This document shows positions 4,307 through 44,104 of a stretch of 64,000 nt of DNA, one piece after another (position 1 is the stretch's first letter; every line of letters starts with the position of its first letter). The notes below the pieces were generated by a model. The model was not told where the DNA came from and did no database searches. It saw nothing but the letters and a program-made list of their open reading frames with translations. This DNA comes from an uncultured Candidatus Saccharibacteria bacterium (GTDB lineage Bacteria; Patescibacteriota; Minisyncoccia; Phycocordibacterales; SBAW01). The stretch covers positions 176,746 through 240,745 of the forward strand of contig CAZTNI010000001.1 of the NCBI GenBank assembly GCA_964615415.1, given 5' to 3'. The position numbers and the translations under genes are program-made.

Positions 4307-4822
4307 TTACTTCTTCGCACCACGCTCGATAACCGTACTTAGACCTTTGAGGCTCTTTGCGATAGGCTCGGCAACCTTGTAGTCGTAGGGGATCAGCTTG
4401 AGGAACCGCTCTAAACGCTCTTTGAGGAGTGCGAAATCCATATACTTATACCGGCCCCAGAGAAACAGGTCTACCTTGACCCGATGCCCTTCCTCGAGCC
4501 ACTCGGCCGCTTTTTTAGCCTTGAGGTTAAGGTCGTGCTCGCCAGTGCCAATCTTGACCTGGACGCTCTTGGTTTCCGTGGTATGTGATTTCGCCTTTAT
4601 TTCTCGGCGTTTTTTCTGCTGTTCGTACGTAAATTTACCATATTCCATTATTTTTGCAACTGGCGGGACGGCGCTCGGAGAGATCTCTATAAGGTCGAGT
4701 CCAGCCTCTTCAGCCTTTGCTAGAGCCTCAGAAAGGCTAATAACCCCAAAGTTTTCACCCTCGGGGCCTATAACGCGCAGCTGCGCAGAACGGATCTGGT
4801 GGTTAATACGAGTCGTATCCAA
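4307..4822 (-). CDS. infC: translation initiation factor IF-3
   Basis: INHQIRSAQLRVIGPEGENFGVISLSEALAKAEEAGLDLIEIS ... VQVKIGTGEHDLNLKAKKAAEWLEEGHRVKV. Confidence 0.95.
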   Translation of the reverse strand: MDTTRINHQIRSAQLRVIGPEGENFGVISLSEALAKAEEAGLDLIEISPSAVPPVAKIMEYGKFTYEQQKKRREIKAKSHTTETKSVQVKIGTGEHDLNLKAKKAAEWLEEGHRVKVDLFLWGRYKYMDFALLKERLERFLKLIPYDYKVAEPIAKSLKGLSTVIERGAKK

Positions 4823-4975
4823 AGCTGTAGTGTCAATACTATAGCAGGTGTGGGGGGTTAGGGCAATCTAATGAGCTGCTCCTCGCATAGAGAGTGTGGA
4901 CATTTATACAAAATATTGTAATATGTGTTCGGTTTTGGCGACGCACAGAGGCGTCAAAAACATAGGAGGAAGGCA

Positions 4976-19551: not shown

Positions 19552-20340
19552 TTACTCTACGCTCGCCAACAAATTCAGCATCGCCGTTTGTTGTTCAAGG
19601 TGGCCATGCTGGGCTTCGACGTTGGTGTAGGGGATCCTTGCTTGCCCGGCATAGACCGAAAGCGACCCGTCATTTTTTGGCGAAGAACTCTGCTCGGCAA
19701 TGTTCATGCCTGCGGCAGCGAGCGCATCATAGACGGCTGCTTCCGTAGTAAAGAAGAAGTCGTCTTTGTCTCTGTCGGGATTTTGATTAATCCGACTCGC
19801 ATTACCTGCTTCGCTTCCTCCATCGTAATAACTTTCAATGGAGAAGTTGTTGTTTGTATTGTTGTGAAGCGCAACCAAGCGTCCTCGACGCGTTCGGAAA
19901 TTATCTATCACTCCTAGTAGGGTCTGCGCCACGCCTGCGACTGCTTGGCGTGCCTCGTCGGAATACGTCCCGCCTTGTTCTTGAAGTGTGTTCTGGATCC
20001 CTTCGTCCGTAAAGATGCGGTTCGGGTCGCACTCATAGCGGACACCGTTTAGTGTGAAGGTAATGTTCCGCGTGCCACCGTACTTTAGTTGTATCAGTGT
20101 GCCACCTCTTTCAGACAAGACCGTGTGTGCCGCTTCGACACAGGTGTTTTCCGAGTCGTGCGGCGCAAAGTAAGTGAGTCCTGGGCCATACAAAGAGACC
20201 CATACTGCAACTGCGGAGTCTCCCAGCGGTATAGCGTTTCCATACTGTGCCTGTGCGGACCCTGCTTTGGCAAACAGGCTTGCGCCTGCGAATGCTGCCG
20301 CACCGCGCAAGAAGCCGCGCTTTGTTATAAGGCCGTCCAT
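19552..20340 (-). CDS. secreted protein with a Tat-like signal peptide, unknown (hydrolase-like) function
   Basis: N-terminus TKRGFLRGAAAFAGASLFAKAGSAQA resembles a twin-arginine signal (KR variant). Confidence 0.5.
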   Translation of the reverse strand: MDGLITKRGFLRGAAAFAGASLFAKAGSAQAQYGNAIPLGDSAVAVWVSLYGPGLTYFAPHDSENTCVEAAHTVLSERGGTLIQLKYGGTRNITFTLNGVRYECDPNRIFTDEGIQNTLQEQGGTYSDEARQAVAGVAQTLLGVIDNFRTRRGRLVALHNNTNNNFSIESYYDGGSEAGNASRINQNPDRDKDDFFFTTEAAVYDALAAAGMNIAEQSSSPKNDGSLSVYAGQARIPYTNVEAQHGHLEQQTAMLNLLASVE

Positions 20341-20485
20341 GTGTTTCCCCGTGAAGATCTAAAGAAAGTCCTCGCGTAGTATACATAGATGCACACGATA
20401 TAAAAACGAGACAACACTTTACAAATTTTACAATGATGGTAATGTGTAAACAGATAAAGTAGCTACAGAACCAGAGGAGGCGTGT

Positions 20486-20860
20486 ATGAATGTGATACCG
20501 ACGAGCCTCGACGTTCTTCGGGCACAGATGTCGCAGCTTGATGCGACCATGATCCTAGTTATTTCCAGGGCGTTTGAAGGTAAGTCTGACGCAGCTATTG
20601 CAGAAACATTGTCCCCTGCGTGGGGCATAGGCGCAGGCTCTGTTGCTCGGGCATGGGAGGGAATGTTTAGGATTTTCGGACTCTCTGGAGCAACATACTC
20701 GGTAGAGCAGAAAAAGTCGCAAATCCTTGCACTGTTTGCGCGATATGCAGAGACGCTGCCACCGACGTTCCGTCCTACGCTGCTTCGCGTGAAGAAGAAA
20801 AAGAAGCAACCGCAGCAGAAAAAGTTTGCTCTCCGCGCTAGCAATAAAGTGCAGATATAA
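20486..20860 (+). CDS. hypothetical protein with a Lys-rich C-terminus
   Basis: Strong ribosome-binding site CAGAGGAGGcgtgtATG. Confidence 0.5.
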   Translation: MNVIPTSLDVLRAQMSQLDATMILVISRAFEGKSDAAIAETLSPAWGIGAGSVARAWEGMFRIFGLSGATYSVEQKKSQILALFARYAETLPPTFRPTLLRVKKKKKQPQQKKFALRASNKVQI

Positions 20861-20905
20861 AAAGCCCCGCATCCGTCAGTCGACGGAGGCGGGGTTTCTT
20901 TTTGT
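20861..20905. terminator. bidirectional intrinsic terminator
   Basis: Nested hairpin CCCCGC ... GCGGGG with T-run, between convergent genes. Confidence 0.7.
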
Positions 20906-20910
20906 GTGTG

Positions 20911-21402
20911 CTATACGGAAGTGGGAACAGATTCGCCTGCCATGATGTCACGGATTACCTTAAGCTGGTCTGCATGTAGCGTCCGTTCGTTAAATCCGCG
21001 AGCGTAGTTGCGACCCCAGAGGGGATCGTGAACTTTTAAACCAAGCGGTTCAAAAGGCCATGATGTTTTATAGCGAGGAATAAAATGTACGTGTATGTGG
21101 TGGTTGTGGCCTTCCTCATTTCCAAATTGTGCATCGTTGAGGCGAAAGTTCACATCGTATAGGACGTTGTACCCGAGCTTCCTGCAGTCCGCGATCACGT
21201 CGCTCACGATTACTTTGTAGCACTCGAGGATTGCCTTGCTGGGAAGGTTGGCTATGCTGGCCCCCTCTCCTTCGTGTGGGACGCGGTCCTTCCACCAGGC
21301 GTAGCAGCGGCCCAAGTAGGGTATCTGCTTTTCGTGTAATACGAGCGTCCAATATTTGTAGTCGCGGATGATCAGTGGCTGGTACCGTTCGCCAAGTAGC
21401 AT
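20911..21402 (-). CDS. HIT-family (histidine triad) hydrolase
   Basis: HNHHIHVHFIPR histidine-triad motif. Start chosen at the internal ATG (MLLGERYQP). Confidence 0.6.
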   Translation of the reverse strand: MLLGERYQPLIIRDYKYWTLVLHEKQIPYLGRCYAWWKDRVPHEGEGASIANLPSKAILECYKVIVSDVIADCRKLGYNVLYDVNFRLNDAQFGNEEGHNHHIHVHFIPRYKTSWPFEPLGLKVHDPLWGRNYARGFNERTLHADQLKVIRDIMAGESVPTSV

Positions 21403-21461
21403 AGTACTTTTCCTCTCTTGAGTTGCGTCTGGCTCGACTCTATATCGCTCTTGTATATATG

Positions 21462-21501
21462 TAAAGCAAAAGAAAAGCGCAGCGTTTTTAATACGCTGCG
21501 C
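21462..21501 (-). terminator. intrinsic terminator, copy 1 of a duplicated terminator sequence
   Basis: GTAAAG ... AAAAGCGCAGCGT-TTTTAAT-ACGCTGCGC. Nearly identical to 23455-23489. Confidence 0.65.
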
Positions 21502-21509
21502 TTTAGAGC

Positions 21510-21926
21510 TTATGGCTTCCAGTATTTTGGTCCATAGGTTCCGTCGGGTTTTGTCTCGAGTTGCATGATGGGGTTGCGGATGTGTGCCCAGGCGACCACC
21601 ACCGCGCAAAGGCCAACGAGGCCGCCGGGAGTAAGTAGCCAATACCTCCACGGCTCGGAGAGAAAGTGTCCCACCAATAACGCAACAATGAGATACGAGA
21701 GACACCACAGGATCACGAAGTCGCACCGCCGGCGGATCAGAGTGTTGCGCTCCTCGGCCTTGATAGCAGCGTGCAAGTAGTGGCGCGACCATGTGCGGTA
21801 TCTGCGATCACGCGCGTCGACTAAGCCTCTGATCTCTTCGTCGCGGCGTGTCACTAGTCGTTCCACCTCCTCGTCAGTCACGTTTGGAGTGAAGACAAAG
21901 TCTGGCTGTGGCTTGCGGCCGAACAT
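21510..21926 (-). CDS. membrane protein, unknown function
   Basis: 138 aa with two hydrophobic segments. Confidence 0.5.
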   Translation of the reverse strand: MFGRKPQPDFVFTPNVTDEEVERLVTRRDEEIRGLVDARDRRYRTWSRHYLHAAIKAEERNTLIRRRCDFVILWCLSYLIVALLVGHFLSEPWRYWLLTPGGLVGLCAVVVAWAHIRNPIMQLETKPDGTYGPKYWKP

Positions 21927-22000
21927 GGATGTACTCCTTTCTATATAAGAGGGCAGTTCTAAGCTTGTTATAGCAGATCTGTCAGAAAAATCACTGATGC

Positions 22001-22035
22001 GTTTGAAAAAGAAAAAGCCCCGCCAATGGCGGGGC
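22001..22035 (-). terminator. intrinsic terminator
   Basis: Hairpin GCCCCGCC-AAT-GGCGGGGC with a T-run on the minus strand. Confidence 0.7.
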
Positions 22036-22060
22036 TTGATGAATGGGGAAGATAAGGTGC

Positions 22061-22627
22061 CTAGGCGGCGACGCTTATCTTTGGCTTGGTGTGCAGCTGC
22101 AGCGCCGCGGCAAGCGCAGTGATGGCAACATGCATCTCCAGGATCTTCCAGGCGGGGAGGGTGACGAGAACATCGGAGCGACCCTCGCTCGCGTCGGCCG
22201 CGACGGTCGTGAGGCCGTCGAGTGCAACATGCGCCGCTTCGCCGTTGTAGAAGGTGTTGTCGCGACTGAGGGTCGTGTCCTTCACGTGGTTGAACAGAGC
22301 GCCCCAGTCGGTTGGCAGCGAAGCCGAGAAGACCCCCTGGCCGGCGTAGCGCTGGAAGGCGTCCACGACGATCTCATGGATGCCTCCATGCTGCCGCGAA
22401 GGCTTCCATGGCTCGGCTGATTCGACCCGGAGGTCGAACGCTGCGAGCGCCTCGGGTTCCGTCATGAAGTGCTCGGACCCCATGGCATTGAAGTTGCCAT
22501 TGTCGAGCTCGGCGTACACGACAGAATAGACCGTGAGGCCCATAAGGCCGTAGTAGCTGTCCACGGCCTCGACGTGCAGCAGGTCCCCATTGGGGAACGC
22601 GTGCTTCTTGATTTCGCGACTGGTCAC
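22061..22627 (-). CDS. hypothetical protein (GC-rich, about 62% GC)
   Basis: GTG start 6 nt after ribosome-binding site AGGAGA. Canonical promoter at 22681-22709. Confidence 0.5.
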   Translation of the reverse strand: MTSREIKKHAFPNGDLLHVEAVDSYYGLMGLTVYSVVYAELDNGNFNAMGSEHFMTEPEALAAFDLRVESAEPWKPSRQHGGIHEIVVDAFQRYAGQGVFSASLPTDWGALFNHVKDTTLSRDNTFYNGEAAHVALDGLTTVAADASEGRSDVLVTLPAWKILEMHVAITALAAALQLHTKPKISVAA

Positions 22628-22680
22628 TGCGAGTCTCCTGTTGTTGTGCGCACGGAATGTGCGCGAATCGTCCAATGTGT

Positions 22681-22709
22681 ATTATATACCATTTAAAGTG
22701 TTTTGTCAA
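22681..22709 (-). promoter_or_regulatory. canonical sigma70 promoter TTGACA - 17 nt - TATAAT (TG-extended)
   Basis: Minus strand reads TTGACAaaacactttaaaTGGTATATAAT. Confidence 0.65.
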
Positions 22710-22730
22710 GCCAAATAATGGCTTTAAATA

Positions 22731-22764
22731 TAAAAGAAAAAGCCTCGCGCTGTGTGCGCGAGGC
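22731..22764 (-). terminator. intrinsic terminator
   Basis: Hairpin GCCTCGCGC-TGTGT-GCGCGAGGC with a minus-strand T-run. Confidence 0.65.
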
Positions 22765-22771
22765 TCAATTG

Positions 22772-22972
22772 CTAGATCCGAATGCCGTTGCGGTGGCTGC
22801 GCAAGGTCTTGCGCTTGCTGTTGTAAGCGTCACGGTAGCGCCACCACTTGCGGCTCCAACTCCAAGAGTTGGGGTGGGGGAAAAAGTTCACGTCATCGAT
22901 CCGGTTCCGATAATTCTGGTTCCGGTAACGATACTGAAGATTCACCACATTCGGACTGGACTGCATGCTCAT
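22772..22972 (-). CDS. small basic W/R/N/Y-rich protein (66 aa)
   Basis: Ribosome-binding site AAGGTGA 4 nt before the ATG. Terminator immediately downstream. Confidence 0.4.
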   Translation of the reverse strand: MSMQSSPNVVNLQYRYRNQNYRNRIDDVNFFPHPNSWSWSRKWWRYRDAYNSKRKTLRSHRNGIRI

Positions 22973-23044
22973 GCATCACCTTTTGGTTGTTAAGGTATAT
23001 GCATGTGTACCTCCGTTGGTTAGAGGAAGGGAACGAACGCTCTG

Positions 23045-23392
23045 TTAACGCAGTGGTCCGACGAACGCTTTGATCTCAGAAACTTTTTCCTCGAGTCTGT
23101 CTGCTACCCATTCCAACATTTTTTCTCGAACTAGTGCGGTGGGCAAATCTTTCCCGTGGCGCCAATCGAAAAGAAAGTTGGTTACAGTTATGCCCTCGGG
23201 CAATTCTGTATTTACTGGGTTAAAGCCGCCATGGTCGATCGCTGTGGCGAGGATCACAGCAAACTCCTCGTCACTCAATGGTTGGTCCAGATGGCCTTGT
23301 AATATTGAGCGGATGACGTTTGCCTGATTCTCTAGGTACGAGAGTGTGTATACGGCGGTTAGCCATCCGTGGGATCCGTTCCGAAGAGTCAT
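23045..23392 (-). CDS. hypothetical protein
   Basis: ATG 23390-23392 preceded by ribosome-binding site AAGGA. Promoter TTGACA...TATAAT just upstream. Confidence 0.5.
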   Translation of the reverse strand: MTLRNGSHGWLTAVYTLSYLENQANVIRSILQGHLDQPLSDEEFAVILATAIDHGGFNPVNTELPEGITVTNFLFDWRHGKDLPTALVREKMLEWVADRLEEKVSEIKAFVGPLR

Positions 23393-23428
23393 GTGCAAAT
23401 CCTTGTTCGTGATAACGTCTGCGAATAG

Positions 23429-23454
23429 ATTATAACAAATAATATTTTTGTCAA
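23429..23454 (-). promoter_or_regulatory. sigma70-like promoter TTGACA - 14 nt - TATAAT
   Basis: Minus strand reads TTGACAaaaatattatttgtTATAAT. Confidence 0.45.
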
Positions 23455-23489
23455 GTAAAGAAAAAGCGCAGCGTCTTAAAACGCTGCGC
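23455..23489 (-). terminator. intrinsic terminator, copy 2 of a duplicated terminator sequence
   Basis: GTAAAGAAAAAGCGCAGCGT-CTTAAA-ACGCTGCGC. Matches 21462-21501. Confidence 0.65.
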
Positions 23490-23498
23490 ACGGGTTAT

Positions 23499-23900
23499 CT
23501 AATCTTCGGCATCTGGAATTTCACCGAAGGGTTTTCCAAAGAAGCGCTCGGTGTCCTCGATGAGTTGTTGAAATTCTCTGCTACTGCGTTGCTCGCGTGC
23601 CAAGTTTTGGTAATGGTTACCGACGGGCGGGGCACCAACACCATCTCGTAACCATTCCTCACTGCACTTCAGATGTGCGGCGCACATCTTGATGAGTGTA
23701 GGTTGAATATGAATCGGGGCTACGATAAAACCCTTTTCTTCCCATCTTGTCCATACAGATGGTAAGAAGCCTAAAGCAGCTGCGCAGCCTGCTACACGTT
23801 CCTCGCGTTGTTCGCGAGCGTAGCGCAACCGACCTTGCACGGTAGTGAGGTCAAGTCCGGGCGTCACAGTAACAATAGTTGTTAAGGGGGTGTCACTCAC
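23499..23900 (-). CDS. hypothetical protein
   Basis: GTG start 6 nt after AGGAG. The longer ORF up to 24056 is rejected because it runs into the tmRNA and its terminator. Confidence 0.45.
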   Translation of the reverse strand: MSDTPLTTIVTVTPGLDLTTVQGRLRYAREQREERVAGCAAALGFLPSVWTRWEEKGFIVAPIHIQPTLIKMCAAHLKCSEEWLRDGVGAPPVGNHYQNLAREQRSSREFQQLIEDTERFFGKPFGEIPDAED

Positions 23901-23968
23901 TGCAAGCTCCTGTGGTGTTTCGTCTGCATGTACCTTATCGAGAGGAAGATTTTTTGTAAAGCAATCAA

Positions 23969-24006
23969 AAAGAAAAAACCGCCAAATGGCGGCTTTTCTT
24001 TTTATG
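23969..24006 (-). terminator. intrinsic terminator of ssrA
   Basis: Hairpin CCGCCAAATGGCGG followed by a T-run on the minus strand, directly after the tmRNA 3' end. Confidence 0.75.
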
Positions 24007-24380
24007 TGGAAGTGGGCGGAGTTGAACCGCCGTGCAACACAAGTCCTCGTACACATCTACAGAAGATAGACTATCTTATTTTCTTGGACTCAATCGTAAG
24101 AGATAGACAGAATAAAATTGAGCTGCAGCTTCATAGTTTCAATTACTGAGCGAAGCGGTTCTCAGTAACTAGAGCCTGAAATATAACACTCGGTCTCCAT
24201 ACTCAGACACTCTGGAGCGAATGTGATTATGCGCGCGCTGTTGCGAACGATAGATCATTCACCGAGAAATACGGTGATTTAACTGATTTTGCAGTTATGG
24301 TTTGGCACATTTTTAAGAAGGTATGCCACTTCTCTCCTGCATGTAGGAAGATAATTGTATTGTCTAAGCCTGTCACTCCC
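24007..24380 (-). ncRNA. ssrA: transfer-messenger RNA (tmRNA, SsrA)
   Basis: Minus strand 5' GGGAGUG ... GUGUACGAGGACUUGUGUUGCACGGCGGUUCAACUCCGCCCACUUCCA 3'. T-arm GGCGG-UUCAACU-CCGCC identical to the E. coli tmRNA T-loop. Acceptor pairing GGGAGUG/CACUUCC with a G3:U70 wobble (Ala identity). CCA not encoded. Lies downstream of smpB on the same strand. Candidate tag ORF GCA (nt 89) ... ends FATARA-TAA at 24227-24229. Confidence 0.8.
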
Positions 24381-24559
24381 CGAAGTAGCACAAAAGATTT
24401 CCGGGCACTAAGTCGAGCGCGACGGCGCGAGACAGAGAAATTTCTTAGCAAAGAAATTTCGGTGACCGAGAATCTTTTGTGCTACATCGGGAAGGGCCTA
24501 GAGAATAAGTGTTCAAATGTGGCGGGGAACATATACGCGTTCCCCGCAGTATGGAAAGG

Positions 24560-24937
24560 TTAGTCGTCGGGATGGAAGATGTAGTCCTCGGACCCGAGAC
24601 AGTACTCCTCGAGGTCGTCCTCCGGAGCTTCCGCTTCCGGATTGGTCGAGTCGAGAAGGCCTGCGGCGATACGGTCGAGCGGATCGAGTACTTCGTCCTC
24701 GACGAGATCGTCGTCCGGGCAGTCGTCGCACTCGTGGTGAACGCGAGCGTGCGCACCGTGGCCGTCGAAGTGCATCTCGAAGCGAGCCTCGTGGTCGTCG
24801 ATGCGAGACTCCTGCTCCGCGTGTCTCCGGAGCGTTGCCGCATGACGTTGCGCCTTGCGACGCTCCTTCTCCGCCCAGGAGAGTCTCCTGTGCGAGCGGG
24901 GTTGGTCGTCTTCTTGCGTTCCGTACTGTCCGTACAA
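24560..24937 (-). CDS. acidic Cys/His-containing small protein between smpB and ssrA (GC-rich gene)
   Basis: TTG start 5 nt after ribosome-binding site AAAGGAGGA. HHECDDCPDDD motif. About 62% GC, so several artefactual ORFs in other frames. Confidence 0.45.
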   Translation of the reverse strand: MYGQYGTQEDDQPRSHRRLSWAEKERRKAQRHAATLRRHAEQESRIDDHEARFEMHFDGHGAHARVHHECDDCPDDDLVEDEVLDPLDRIAAGLLDSTNPEAEAPEDDLEEYCLGSEDYIFHPDD

Positions 24938-24992
24938 CTTTTCCTCCTTTGGTTCTTTTCCAAATTGTGGCGCACACGCCACATTTGAACAC

Positions 24993-25436
24993 TTATTCGT
25001 TTTTCAATGTCCTGCGCATTTCGCGCTCCGTGTCCCGCTTCTTTAAGACGGCACGTTTGTCGAATGCTTTCCGACCGCGCGCGGCTGCCACGCGCAGCTT
25101 TAATACATCTCCTTTATTATACACCGAAAGTGGCACTACTGTCAAGCCTTTTTGACCCTCATATTCGGCCAGTTTTTCTATCTCCTCCTTGGTGAGGAGT
25201 AGTTTGCGGCTGCGCTCTGGGTCGTAGTCGGTTGGCGTGTTTGCTGCCTGGTAGGGTGGCACCGACATGCCTACTATATATGCTTCGCCGCCGCGTACTA
25301 TTATATGCGCGCCGTCTAATTTTCCGTTCCCTCCACGCAGCGACTTTACTTCGAAGCCAAGGAGCTCTAAGCCCGCCTCGAATTCCTCGAGGACCTCGTA
25401 GTTAAGTCGCGCTTTTTTGTTCTCTATAAGAGACAT
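24993..25436 (-). CDS. smpB: SsrA-binding protein SmpB
   Basis: MSLIENKKARLNYEVLEEFEAGLELLGFEVKSLR ... typical SmpB N-terminus. Confidence 0.95.
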   Translation of the reverse strand: MSLIENKKARLNYEVLEEFEAGLELLGFEVKSLRGGNGKLDGAHIIVRGGEAYIVGMSVPPYQAANTPTDYDPERSRKLLLTKEEIEKLAEYEGQKGLTVVPLSVYNKGDVLKLRVAAARGRKAFDKRAVLKKRDTEREMRRTLKNE

Positions 25437-25482: not shown

Positions 25483-27435
25483 ATGCCAGAACAAAAAGAT
25501 ACCCAGGGTGGACCGGGGAACAAGCGCGGTCCTCGTAAACTGCCTCCTGTACCGAAGATGCCGCGTGGCGATTCCTTTTGGATTAACTTCGCTATGAGCG
25601 TCGTGCTCTTCTTGCTGCTTGCAGGGGCGTATACGTACTTTGTAGGTGCAGGGAAAGATACGCCGGAAGACATTCCTGTTTCGCAGCTTGCGACCGACAT
25701 TGTCGCAGGAAAGGTGACCACTATCGTTGTGGATGGCGACAACCTCGACATTACCTACGCGGACAAGACAGAAAAAACATCTAAAAAGGAGCCTGACACC
25801 GCGCTTACCGAAACACTCACTAACTATGGCGTATCGACACAAGCGCTCGGCAAAGTTGCCATCGACATTAAACGCCAAAGTTCGTGGCAGTTTTGGTTGA
25901 CCGCACTCGCTCCGTTTTTAGCACCGCTTCTCTTGATCGGATTCTTTATCTGGTACCTCTCGCGACAAGTGCGCGGCGCAGGCGTACAGGCATTCTCTTT
26001 CGGCCAGAGTAAGCCACGCTTAATCGACCCGAACGATGCGGGGCAGCGTGTCACGTTTAAAGATGTTGCAGGTGCAAAGGAAGCAAAAGTAGAATTGCTC
26101 GAAATCGTCGACTTCCTGCGTAATCCAAAGAAATTCCTCGACATTGGCGCGCGTATTCCGAAAGGTATTCTGTTGATGGGTGCGCCAGGTACGGGCAAGA
26201 CTTTGCTTGCGCGCGCAGTTGCGGGCGAGGCAGGTGTGCCGTTTTTCTCTATCTCAGGATCAGAATTCGTTGAGATGTTTGTGGGCGTTGGTGCATCCCG
26301 CGTGCGCGACCTCTTTTTAACTGCAAAGAAGGCGGCGCCAGCGATTATCTTCGTCGACGAAATTGATGCCGTTGGCCGCGTGCGTGGTACGGGTGTGGGC
26401 GGTGGTAACGATGAACGCGAACAAACTTTGAACCAGATTCTTGTCGAGATGGACGGCTTTGAGCCGAATGAAAAAGTTATCGTTATGGCGGCGACGAACC
26501 GTCCTGATGTCCTGGACCCCGCACTCCTTCGTCCGGGCCGCTTCGACCGTCGCGTGTTTATTGACCTTCCGGACCGTACGGACCGCCTTGAAATCCTTAC
26601 TATCCATGCACGCAAGAAGCCACTTGCAGAAGACGTTAACCTTGAGGTGATTGCAGAGCGCACGCCAGGTTTCTCTGGTGCCGACCTCTACTCCTTGATG
26701 AACGAAGGTGCGATTCTTGCGGCGCGCGAAAACCGCAAAACCGTTGCGCAGTTCGACCTCATCCGCTCTATTGAAAAAGTGATGCTCGGTCCGGAACGCC
26801 GCTCGCATGTCTTAAATAAAAAAGAGAAGGAAATTACTGCCTATCACGAAGCTGGCCACGCGCTTGTCGCGTCGGTGCTTCCATACGCAGATCCGGTACA
26901 TAAAATTTCTATCATCAGTCGTGGTCGCGCTGGCGGCTACACGCTAAAGCTTCCATTCGATGACCGTAAGCTCCAAAGTAAGCGTGAGTTCCTCGACGAT
27001 ATTGCAATGTCACTTGGTGGATACGTTGCAGAGCGTGAAGTCTTTGGCGATGTTACGACTGGACCATCAAACGACTTGCAAGTGTTGACCGCGCTTGCGC
27101 GTGACATGGTGACTCGTTACGGCATGTCGGAAAAAATGGGCACGGTAGCACTTACGGGTGATGGTGGTCGCGCCATGTTTGGTAGTGGTGTCGAAGGTAA
27201 AGAACACTCGGACAAAGTATCTGCAGAAATTGATAGTGAGGTAAAGCGCATTGTTGACGAGGCGTACGACAAAGCGACAAAGATTGTAAAAGACTACCGT
27301 CACGTGCTTGATGCTATCGCGAAGCGACTTGTTGAAGTAGAAAATATTGAACGCGAAGAATTTGAAACTATTCTTGTTGCGCACGGGATCCAGCCGAAAC
27401 GCAAACAAGACATAGAGCATCAGCCGATCGTATAG
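25483..27435 (+). CDS. ftsH: ATP-dependent zinc metalloprotease FtsH
   Basis: Two N-terminal TM segments. AAA Walker [24 protein letters not shown]. Second-region-of-homology motif. HEAGHALV zinc site. Confidence 0.95.
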
Positions 27436-30602: not shown

Positions 30603-30630
30603 CCGGCCAGAAATGGCCGGAATTTTTTTG
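30603..30630 (+). terminator. intrinsic terminator
   Basis: Hairpin CCGGCC-AGAAAT-GGCCGG followed by AATTTTTTT. Confidence 0.7.
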
Positions 30631-30702
30631 TGGGCGCGGCAGGGATCGAACCTGCGACCAGTCGTGTATAAGACGACGGCTCTACCACTGAGCTACGCGC
30701 CC
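30631..30702 (-). tRNA. tRNA-Ile with anticodon UAU (reads AUA)
   Basis: Minus strand GGGCGCG-UA-GCUC-AGUGGUA-GAGC-C-GUCGU-CUUAUAC-ACGAC-UGGUC-GCAGG-UUCGAUC-CCUGC-CGCGCCC-A. All four stems are perfect. CCA not encoded. Confidence 0.85.
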
Positions 30703-38910: not shown

Positions 38911-40074
38911 TTAGGCAACTATTTCTTTTGCTTTTTCAATAAAGTCCTCAACTGTAAGGATAGTGAGAGGATGATTTTTCGGATACTCGTCTTGGAGTTT
39001 GCGAGGCACTACCAGTGTCACTCCTGCCTCGTGCATCTCCGTGAGTTGGTTTGACGAAATGCCAGGCTGCAGCGTGAGAATGTGTTTATTTTTTACCCGT
39101 TTGCCCTCATTCAACACCTGTCGCCATCGGTCTTTGCACGTGGTCTTTACGCCCATCACAATCAGATTTTCAGTCGGATATGATGTATCCAAATACGCTT
39201 CTTTACTTGGAAAAACAATGTCTGGTTTTCCATCAACACGCGGCTGCATCTCGTGAGGCAGATTTGCTTCGGTGAGAATACTGTCTACGTGGTTCTCAAG
39301 CGAGTGACCCGCTCTTGATTTGCGGCGGTTCATAATGCTTGCTGCCGTGTGGAGGAAGTCATCAACATCTTTGAAAAGACGACCTATTTCTGACTGGCAA
39401 ATTTGTCGCTCAACCACTTGGAATAGTCGGTATTCGGTTAAATAGTATTCAAGAAGCTTGGTATCCGCAGGTTGTTTAGCCAGCTCACTGAAACAGTGAG
39501 CGAGCATATCACGTGTTGAGTTTGAAAAGACATCTGTGCGAGGAAAGGTCTCAAGTGACTTTGCGAACTCTTGAAACTGCTTCTCCAAACACGCATCGGT
39601 ATCCTCAACTTCTGCCGCACCGTTTTTGTAAATAGCCCAGTGCTCAAAGGGCTGTACGCCCAAAGAAGCCATTATTTCCTCAATGTCATCCTCTTGGTCA
39701 AAAACATACGCGTTGAAGTGTTTGGCACTCGTAGGAACAAGCATCAGCAGATCTCCAACGGTGTCAGGTATGAGGAATGGAAAATCGCGTCCGAAGCGGG
39801 TCAGTCGGTACTCTGAACGCGTGCCCTGACCGTACCAAGTGACAACGGAGTTCGTGGTTCTTCCATCGTGCCATTCAATGTCTACATCGTGCTTTGTATT
39901 TTGCCCTTTGGTAGGAGCATTTGGGGTGTAAATCTCCCACGCAGATTTTGGTAGATAAAACCCTGCCTGATGCGCTCCTGTCGCACCTGTGTCATTCGGC
40001 GAGATGAACTTCAATAGCGCGTTTCCGTGCTGTACTGCCTCACTGATTGCTTTTTCGATAAGTGGTGACGCCAT
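38911..40074 (-). CDS. EcoRII-family type IIE restriction endonuclease
   Basis: N-terminal effector domain KFISPNDTGATGAHQAGFYLP and RFGRDFPFLIPDTVGDLLMLV align closely with EcoRII KRLSANDTGATGGHQVGLYIP / RWGRGSPLQDPENTGALTLLAF. Confidence 0.8.
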   Translation of the reverse strand: MASPLIEKAISEAVQHGNALLKFISPNDTGATGAHQAGFYLPKSAWEIYTPNAPTKGQNTKHDVDIEWHDGRTTNSVVTWYGQGTRSEYRLTRFGRDFPFLIPDTVGDLLMLVPTSAKHFNAYVFDQEDDIEEIMASLGVQPFEHWAIYKNGAAEVEDTDACLEKQFQEFAKSLETFPRTDVFSNSTRDMLAHCFSELAKQPADTKLLEYYLTEYRLFQVVERQICQSEIGRLFKDVDDFLHTAASIMNRRKSRAGHSLENHVDSILTEANLPHEMQPRVDGKPDIVFPSKEAYLDTSYPTENLIVMGVKTTCKDRWRQVLNEGKRVKNKHILTLQPGISSNQLTEMHEAGVTLVVPRKLQDEYPKNHPLTILTVEDFIEKAKEIVA

Positions 40075-40080
40075 TGTAGT

Positions 40081-41244
40081 TTATTTTGCTTTGCGTTTTG
40101 CCTTCTTTGCGAGGAAAGTTTTGACCATCTGCGCTGCCGTTGCCTCAACTGCTGGCACGACAACCGCGTTGCCAAACTGCCTGTACGCCTGTGTATCAGA
40201 TACTACTACCTTGCACTCCTTCGGGAAACCCATTAGTTTGGCGCACTCCTGTGGTGTCAGACGGCGTGGAGATTTCCTGTCTTTCTGCTCAATAAGGATT
40301 TCAGAACCGTCCTTGTAGTAACGGGCGCTCAACGTTCTGGTGATGCCGTTAGGGTCAGCGATGCCGAAGCCAAAACCGTTTCCCTTTTCCCGATGACGCT
40401 GTGCGTAGTTCTGCAAATACTGCCACAGATGGTCAGTGAGGGTATATTTTGCATCAGGTTTCTTCTCCAAAATGTCTTTGAGTTTTGCTTTGAGTGGCGG
40501 TGGTTCTGGGAACATGAAGTCAGGGTTCTCTCCAAACACCGACTTCTTGAAAGCGATGATGAAAATGCGCTCGCGGTGCTGCGGAACCCAGTGTGCAGCA
40601 TCATATACCCGCGTGAACGTCACGTAGCCGAGGTCTTTCAGCGTGTTCATTATCACGGTCCACGTCTTGCCTCCATCGTGTGACTGTAGGTTTTTTACGT
40701 TCTCCAAGAAAAGTACCGATGGCTTTTTTGCCTGAATAATCGTGGCAAGGTAGAAGAAAAGATTACCTTGATTTTTATCCTTAAAACCGTGCTCCAAACC
40801 CAAACTCTTTTTCTTTGAAACCCCTGCGAGAGAGAAGGGCTGGCAAGGAAAACCAGCAGCCAACACATCGTGATTGGGAATGTCTGCGGGCTTTACCTTT
40901 CGGATGTCACCTGCGGGCATCTCACCAAACCACGCCTTATAGGTTTTCTGGGAATACTTGTCCCATTCTGAAGTATAAACACACTCACCGCCAAGTTTCT
41001 CAAGAGCTATCCTGAATCCGCCAATCCCGGCAAAGAGGTCGATAAACGTAAAAGTAGTTGGAACATTTGGTTTGGGGAAAAGACGTTCACTTGGGAAAAG
41101 CTCTCGTTGTTGTACCTCTTTAGAGAGCTTGTTAAGCACAGTTAGTACGAACTCTTGTTGAGTCATGTTCTGTTGCTGCCGTTCTTTTTCAATCCATTTT
41201 TCAGTAGCAGTCGGTATATTCCTTACTAAAAGTTGCTTGCTCAT
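40081..41244 (-). CDS. DNA (cytosine-5) methyltransferase with an N-terminal ribbon-helix-helix-like extension
   Basis: Motif I FIDLFAGIGGF. Motif IV GFPCQPFSLAG. ENV motif. N-terminal QLLVRNIPTATEKWIEKERQQQNMTQQEFVLTVLNK matches the RHH (CopG/Arc) pattern. The only ATG is at 41242-41244. Confidence 0.85.
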   Translation of the reverse strand: MSKQLLVRNIPTATEKWIEKERQQQNMTQQEFVLTVLNKLSKEVQQRELFPSERLFPKPNVPTTFTFIDLFAGIGGFRIALEKLGGECVYTSEWDKYSQKTYKAWFGEMPAGDIRKVKPADIPNHDVLAAGFPCQPFSLAGVSKKKSLGLEHGFKDKNQGNLFFYLATIIQAKKPSVLFLENVKNLQSHDGGKTWTVIMNTLKDLGYVTFTRVYDAAHWVPQHRERIFIIAFKKSVFGENPDFMFPEPPPLKAKLKDILEKKPDAKYTLTDHLWQYLQNYAQRHREKGNGFGFGIADPNGITRTLSARYYKDGSEILIEQKDRKSPRRLTPQECAKLMGFPKECKVVVSDTQAYRQFGNAVVVPAVEATAAQMVKTFLAKKAKRKAK

Positions 41245-41336
41245 GTCTCTGTGAATATATGATAGCAAATATACCCAGCTCTGGTATAACTAGTTTTCCA
41301 CAGAACATCAAACTTAGAGGTTCAAAGTTGCCAATC

Positions 41337-41426
41337 TGGCGGAGAGGGAGGGATTCGAACCCTCGGAACCCTTTCGGGCTCAACAACTTAGCAGGTTGCT
41401 CCATTCGGCCGCTCTGGCACCTCTCC
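41337..41426 (-). tRNA. tRNA-Ser(GCU), type II
   Basis: Minus strand GGAGAGG-UG-CCA-...-GCAAC-CUGCUAA-GUUGU-(long variable arm)-GAGGG-UUCGAAU-CCCUC-CCUCUCC-G-CCA. G73 discriminator. CCA encoded. Confidence 0.85.
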
Positions 41427-43973: not shown

Positions 43974-44058
43974 GGAGAGATGGATGAGTGGTTTAAATCA
44001 ACAGTTTACTAAACTGTCGATCCGCAAGGATCCGTGGGTTCGAATCCCACTCTCTCCG
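43974..44058 (+). tRNA. Ser-like type II tRNA with an unusual anticodon loop UUACUAA (anticodon ACU)
   Basis: GGAGAGA-UG-GAU-GAGUGGUUUAA-AUC-A-ACAGU-UUACUAA-ACUGU-(16-nt variable arm GAUCC-GCAA-GGAUC)-GUGGG-UUCGAAU-CCCAC-UCUCUCC-G. All stems pair. G73 discriminator and 3-bp D-stem as in tRNA-Ser. Confidence 0.55.
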
Positions 44059-44104
44059 CATAAAGAAAGATATACGTGCCTCATCCGTCAGGTACTATAC
44101 AAAC

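Follow-up and report, generated by a model that had tools for sequence, protein, structure and literature searches.

A one-piece tmRNA gene with a long, lineage-typical tag downstream of smpB in a Paceibacteria bacterium

Does the minus strand of this DNA hold a working tmRNA gene (ssrA) downstream of smpB, and is the long peptide that can be read from it, with its Ala-Arg-Ala end, the true tag? A preliminary description of the window (i.e., the whole stretch of 64,000 nt that was analysed) had found such a gene by hand and had left both the length of the tag and its ARA ending to be confirmed. ARAGORN called a tmRNA at 24006-24380 on the minus strand with the tag AKSVKSPYFSVNDLSFATARA*, and the Rfam tmRNA model RF00023 was matched over positions 1-374 of 374, not truncated, with 100.8 bits (gathering score, 47) and an E-value of 3.2e-38, a match far above what chance would give. 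According to both searches, this was the single tmRNA in the window. The two programs also agreed on GCA as the resume codon, which was aligned to the consensus GCA of RF00023 with the top posterior probability. The identity of the gene, which had been proposed from the letters, was thus borne out by strong scores with ARAGORN and with the Infernal tmRNA model, the two checks that had been suggested for it.

The ends of the gene, as they had been given, and its acceptor helix with the G3:U70 pair agreed base for base with the raw sequence. The minus strand begins with GGGAGTGACAGGCTTAGAC at 24380 and finishes with ...GGCGGTTCAACTCCGCCCACTTCCA at 24007, which is the discriminator A of the 3' end ...GTGTACGAGGACTTGTGTTGCACGGCGGTTCAACTCCGCCCACTTCCA. 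The terminal CCA is not encoded in ssrA, and the genomic sequence at that point reads ...CCA followed by CAU. The two strands of the 7-bp acceptor stem, GGGAGUG and CACUUCC, form the alanine identity pair G3:U70. Among 12 close relatives, G3:U was invariant, acceptor pairs 4 and 5 covaried (A-U/G-C vs. G-C/A-U), and three pairs of the T stem showed compensatory changes. RNAalifold predicted 81 pairs for the same relatives, 48 of which keep pairing despite two-sided changes; such pairs occur at acceptor positions 4 and 5, along the T stem and the long connecting helix, and in stem 1 of pseudoknot PK1 (columns 49-53/62-66) and helix 5. Stem 2 of PK1 covaried as GG/CC, CC/GG, and UC/GA, as read by eye from the alignment. 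Covarying helices were also predicted by RNAalifold at columns 163-202, 219-248, and 268-300, where the putative pseudoknots PK2-PK4 would lie, and several non-canonical pairs were marked in the middle of the molecule in the Rfam alignment. The terminator that had been noted after the gene was found as a hairpin of 11 pairs with a T run. Taken together, the locus almost certainly holds a functional tmRNA gene of the standard one-piece form, which belongs to an Adlerbacteria-like member of the Paceibacteria (CPR/Patescibacteria), and no observation spoke against its identity as tmRNA. It is an already known kind of gene that standard tools detect, and a curated tmRNA database holds 97,179 sequences (PMC11915505). 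The coordinates of the gene and of the features around it are collected in Table 1.

Table 1. Features of the ssrA locus, with positions in the window.
Feature	Positions	Strand	Basis and remarks
Terminator-like hairpin with T run	23963..23998	-	Hairpin 23998-23973, 11 pairs; begins 9 nt past the tmRNA 3' end
ssrA, standard one-piece tmRNA	24007..24380	-	374 nt to discriminator A; ARAGORN, RF00023, nhmmer profile of relatives
T-arm, acceptor 3' strand, and discriminator	24007..24031	-	GGCGG-UUCAACU-CCGCC (24031-24015), CACUUCC (24014-24008), A (24007)
Tag frame	24227..24292	-	GCA 24292-24290 (nt 89), 21 codons (AKSVKSPYFSVNDLSFATARA), stop TAA 24229-24227
Hairpin within the tag frame	24259..24277	-	UCACCG-UAUUUCU-CGGUGA, codons of S-P-Y-F-S-V; RNAalifold columns 106-111/119-124, compensatory
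Pseudoknot PK1	24303..24334	-	5' of the resume codon; stem 1 GAGAAG/CUUCUU, stem 2 UGGCA/UGCCA
Acceptor stem, 5' strand	24374..24380	-	GGGAGUG (24380-24374), holds G3 of G3:U70; sequence
Y-shaped structured element	24376..24494	-	33-nt arms and 64-nt core, just 5' of the tmRNA; RNAfold z-score -8.3
Lineage-specific insert	24503..24998	-	125-aa acidic ORF (24560-24936); perfect 22-nt inverted repeat 24998-24977 / 24524-24503
smpB	24993..25436	-	147 aa, PF01668, tmRNA partner; upstream of ssrA, same strand
Candidate ssrA promoter	25116..25145	-	TTGACA-18 nt-TATAAT in the 3' part of smpB; 12/12 consensus match (promoter scan)
ftsH, AAA+ membrane protease	25483..27435	+	Divergent from smpB; FtsH_ext, AAA, Peptidase_M41

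The SmpB protein was 72-88% identical to annotated SmpB of MAGs assigned to Paceibacterota, Adlerbacteria, or "Patescibacteria group", and the best 80 genome loci by smpB fell into the same group. Wherever the sequence of a related locus extended far enough past smpB, a tmRNA was found downstream of it. In the window, ssrA likewise lies downstream of smpB and on the same strand, as had been stated, but not "directly" so, as a spacer of 612 nt separates the two genes. The arrangement of ftsH and smpB was also found in the related locus L083. A tRNA-Ile with the anticodon UAU is located at 30630-30702 on the minus strand. The usual tRNA-Ile of this type is the CAU/lysidine form. In about 40 related genomes, the UAU gene lay no more than a few kb away from smpB, and it can therefore be regarded as a member of the conserved neighborhood.

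The tag was compared with those of the best 80 species-level genome loci around smpB and of three closer metagenome contigs, from which an alignment of 79 full-length tmRNAs found beside smpB in related Paceibacteria was obtained. The reading of the tag frame from GCA at nt 89 to TAA was confirmed by the sequence and by ARAGORN, giving the tag peptide AKSVKSPYFSVNDLSFATARA. For 78 of the 79 tmRNAs, the tag ORF starts at the alignment column of the window's GCA and encodes a homologous peptide. These 78 tags are 16-30 aa long (median 23), with SP[YF] in 65 and SPI in nine of them, and follow a pattern of SPYF...F.F..A, the aromatic residues of which are Y, F, and F in the window tag. The last three residues are ALA in 16 tags, ARA in 11 (the window included), AFA in 11, AKA in six, ALV in six, and others in the rest; an A-x-A end occurs in 55 of the 78, a Val end in 12, and an Ala-Ala end in one. 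The ending ...FATARA is common to L007 (tag, AKSVTSPYFSVNDLSFATARA), L041, L058, and L084, and L009 ends in ...LATARA; in the metagenome relatives, which are closer, the tag end reads FATARA, FAFARA (L083), or FAYARA (L085). On the aligned sequences, a long tag with the SPYF motif and an A-x-A end is the class-wide tag form. Since homologous tags occur in the relatives, the tag that had appeared unusual is typical of its lineage, and the comparison with related lineages that had been proposed confirmed both its length and its ARA end.

At the codon level, the FATARA end varied synonymously among the relatives (e.g., CGC/CGA, GCA/GCC/GCG, and ACA/ACT/ACC), and the codons for Ser-Pro-Tyr/Phe-Phe showed free variation at the third position. 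Between the window tag and that of L007, five codon differences were synonymous and one was non-synonymous; the corresponding numbers for L009 were six and two. The shared start column, the homologous peptides, and the mostly synonymous substitutions indicate that selection acts at the peptide level on the reading frame, on the tag length, and on the ARA end. The part of the frame that encodes SPYFSV also forms a hairpin. Its 21-nt segment folded at -3 kcal/mol or below in 52 of 56 relatives, in comparison with 7.1 expected from shuffles. The hairpin is compensatory in the close group and folds in most relatives; this stretch is thus under a double constraint, as an RNA and as a peptide.

By the established mechanism of trans-translation, the tmRNA would be charged with alanine by alanyl-tRNA synthetase, and SmpB would bring the charged molecule to ribosomes that have stalled on a broken mRNA. 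The carried alanine would then join the nascent chain, AKSVKSPYFSVNDLSFATARA would be translated off the tmRNA, and the ribosome would be freed at TAA, so that the addition would amount to 22 residues (the alanine brought by the tmRNA and 21 encoded ones). What supports these steps here, from charging to release, is the presence of all the needed sequence features and of smpB. The fate of the tagged proteins is a separate question. A terminal Ala-Ala is critical for the ssrA-like degrons that ClpXP recognizes in E. coli (PMC10862746), and this canonical feature (..LAA-COOH) is absent from the window tag, which ends in ...A-R-A. The tag of M. pneumoniae, an organism without ClpXP, comprises 27 aa, is rich in hydrophobic and aromatic residues, and is degraded mainly by Lon (PMC8403727). 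The window tag looks more similar to these Lon-degraded, long, aromatic tags of Mollicutes than to the LAA degron of ClpXP. Because it lacks a terminal Ala-Ala, tagged proteins may well, like those of Mollicutes, be handed to Lon or FtsH and not to the canonical ClpX "LAA" route, a reading whose chances are judged to be about even. The product of the neighboring ftsH gene is one candidate for degrading them.

On the other hand, the tag may still be a ClpXP degron, with a ClpX that has co-evolved to accept A-x-A ends and an SPYF motif that binds an SspB-like adaptor. A C-terminal Ala together with an Ala at position -3, as found in 55 of the 78 tags, would fit this reading, and the conserved upstream motif plus C-terminus would fit the layout of the E. 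coli tag, in which one part serves SspB and the other ClpX (PMC8403727). However, the Ala-Ala that is critical in E. coli (PMC10862746) occurred in a single tag of 78, 12 tags end in Val, and the tags are long and aromatic, similar to those targeted by Lon in Mollicutes. Furthermore, no clpX or clpP was seen within the 64 kb. A search of ORFs and Pfam families, which covered the 64-kb window alone, also detected no lon, and a literature search on the protease inventory returned nothing relevant. By analogy with Mollicutes, Lon or FtsH is favored over a co-evolved ClpXP, which is regarded as possible but doubtful. In this respect, the class-wide tag, which is long, contains SPYF, and almost never ends in Ala-Ala, leads to a hypothesis on which protease clears rescued proteins in bacteria with reduced genomes.

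A different concern is that the tmRNA is real and its true tag is another one, read from another resume codon or in another frame. ARAGORN indeed picked other starts or frames in six relatives (L004, L025, L029, L031, L071, and L080), and tag calls in this lineage are thus prone to error. However, these divergent calls vanish on alignment, in which nearly all tmRNAs yield the homologous peptide from the same column. The resume context, AUAACU immediately before GCA, is kept in the close group, the Rfam alignment sets this GCA on the consensus resume codon, and the substitutions within the frame are mostly synonymous in the nearest relatives. A tag other than AKSVKSPYFSVNDLSFATARA is consequently very improbable. 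In all, ARAGORN missed 26 of the 79 tmRNAs of the class and mis-framed about six, and an nhmmer profile built from the tmRNAs of the relatives recovered all of those that had been missed. Catalogues of CPR tags that are built with ARAGORN would therefore be incomplete. No paper on CPR tmRNA tags was found in the literature searched.

The promoter of ssrA probably lies within smpB, as judged from the consensus match of TTGACA-18-TATAAT and from codon choice. The two hexamers are parts of the codons of conserved SmpB residues (G-L-T...V-Y-N-K). Of 56 relatives, 50 had TTGACA and 39 had TATAAT, always 18 nt apart, whereas another Leu-Thr pair of smpB, taken as a control, was encoded by 12 different codon pairs, none of which was TTGACA. 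When codon fixation was compared across about 45-56 related smpB genes, only Leu98 (TTG, 98%), Thr99 (ACA, 87%), and Tyr106 (TAT, 91%) were codon-fixed among 47 conserved degenerate codons, and the remaining ones ranged from 27 to 76%. The spacer between smpB and ssrA is only 2-23 nt long in 15 relatives, too short to accommodate a separate promoter. In L058, the internal hexamers are missing, and the tmRNA is preceded by a TTGCAA-16-TATAAT of its own. Transcription from the putative sigma-70-type promoter embedded in smpB would yield a long precursor, from which an extended 5' leader would have to be removed, presumably by RNase P and possibly by other nucleases.

The combined proposal that Paceibacteria use a sigma-70 ssrA promoter within smpB together with a degron of their own kind (an SP[YF]F motif and an A-x-A end), recognized by some protease that is not ClpXP, is considered evenly balanced between true and false. 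If true, the same DNA would be under constraint as protein and as promoter throughout the class. The codon-fixed TTGACA/TATAAT in smpB offers a clean and testable case of a probable promoter within a coding sequence. No paper on an ssrA promoter inside smpB was found in the literature searched.

The 612-nt spacer contains an ORF of 125 aa and a structured element of 119 nt, which is Y-shaped. The core of the latter (GGTCACCGAAATTTC...TTAGTGCCC / GGTCACCGAAATTTC...CTCGACTTAGTGCCC) is an invariant stretch of 64 nt, and the arms are variable but complementary. Identical or nearly identical cores were found in L083, L085, and L013, and 18 of 43 pairs were compensatory in five copies, all of them in the basal stem. 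No Rfam family was matched by the element. Its role as a tmRNA-specific leader was considered and rejected, as the core also occurs with new complementary arms in L087/L091, where there is no tmRNA; a metagenome scan located that copy between convergent genes near dnaA. From these sequences, the element resembles a structured repeat that is dispersed among intergenic regions. The spacers of the relatives were, in general, more stable than shuffles (median z, -4.2; 31 of 49 below -3). A spacer hairpin that sequesters the 5' end of the tmRNA was also considered. Minimum-free-energy folds of 39 of 49 loci paired nt 1-4 of the tmRNA with the spacer. The same pairing arose with 78% of shuffled spacers, and for this reason it does not count as evidence.

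The 125-aa ORF is part of a lineage-specific insert and matched neither a Pfam family nor a protein in the database. Inverted repeats of the same type (AGTGnnnAAATGTGG / CCACATTTnnnCACT), with compensatory changes, flank other cargo ORFs in L084 and L003; the ORF of L084 showed a weak match of 34% to that of the window, and the ORF of L003 was unrelated. The insert may be mobile, or it may represent a long-range stem in RNA. A small GIY-YIG-like ORF occupies the smpB-ssrA spacer in L023 (about 4441-4839) and L082 (about 4438-4903), the two copies being 64% identical to each other. A conserved partner, such as an adaptor, encoded by the spacer ORF was rejected on the lack of Pfam and database matches and on the differing ORFs found at the same place in L003 and L023/L082. 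The variety of these ORFs suggests that the smpB-ssrA spacer is an insertion hot spot.

That this ssrA copy is decayed, or is borne by a mobile element as a prophage or island remnant and is not the working ssrA of the cell, is extremely improbable: tmRNA genes are common integration sites (PMC9580842), seven ORFs without a Pfam family follow downstream, and an inverted-repeat-flanked ORF is inserted in the spacer, but the gene is full length with its stems intact, is the sole tmRNA in the window, and sits in the conserved ftsH-smpB-ssrA arrangement, and neither an integrase among the downstream ORFs nor, in the window, a second copy of its last 25 nt at 3 or fewer mismatches (and hence no att-like repeat) was found. 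A genomic island at the tmRNA 3' end was dropped as a candidate on the last two of these results.

The seven consecutive ORFs past ssrA extend over 19552-24056 on the minus strand, and intergenic repeats of 32-38 nt occur among them (21454-21491 with 23443-23480 and 22712-22743 with 23436-23467). Elsewhere in the window, an EcoRII-type restriction endonuclease gene adjoins a C-5 cytosine methyltransferase gene (38911-41268, minus strand), which amounts to a complete type II restriction-modification system. Two serine tRNA genes were also observed, namely a tRNA-Ser(GCU) at 41337-41426 on the minus strand and a tRNA-Ser at 43974-44059 on the plus strand (Rfam tRNA, 58 bits), the anticodon of which was read as ACU (A34) by ARAGORN. 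A serine tRNA with A34 is unusual for bacteria.

In comparison with known systems, the gene resembles E. coli SsrA and RF00023 in its tRNA-Ala-like domain with G3:U70 and the T-loop GGUUCAACUCC, in PK1 just before the GCA resume codon, in the UAA of the tag frame beside helix 5, and in its length of 374 nt, with the partner smpB upstream and a terminator downstream. It differs from E. coli SsrA in that it encodes 21 tag residues where E. coli has 10, in that the tag ends in Arg-Ala and not in Ala-Ala, in the extra hairpin within the tag frame, in the CCA, which is not encoded here, and in the probable promoter, which lies within smpB and not in the intergenic region. Similar to the Lon-degraded tags of Mollicutes (M. 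pneumoniae and Mesoplasma florum), the tag is long and hydrophobic/aromatic, lacks an LAA end, and occurs with a reduced genome (PMC8403727); however, the sequences are unrelated, and the SP[YF]F motif of the tag here is specific to the class. A further likeness is to the tmRNAs of other Paceibacteria/Parcubacteria MAGs (L003-L085), with which the window has in common the resume column, the homologous tags, the smpB-internal TTGACA/TATAAT hexamers, and the order ftsH-smpB-ssrA, often with a tRNA-Ile(UAU) nearby. Within this group, the C-terminal residues of the tag depend on the clade (ARA, AKA, ALA, AFA, ALV, and others), and an inverted-repeat-flanked ORF lies between smpB and ssrA in the window genome, L084, and L003.
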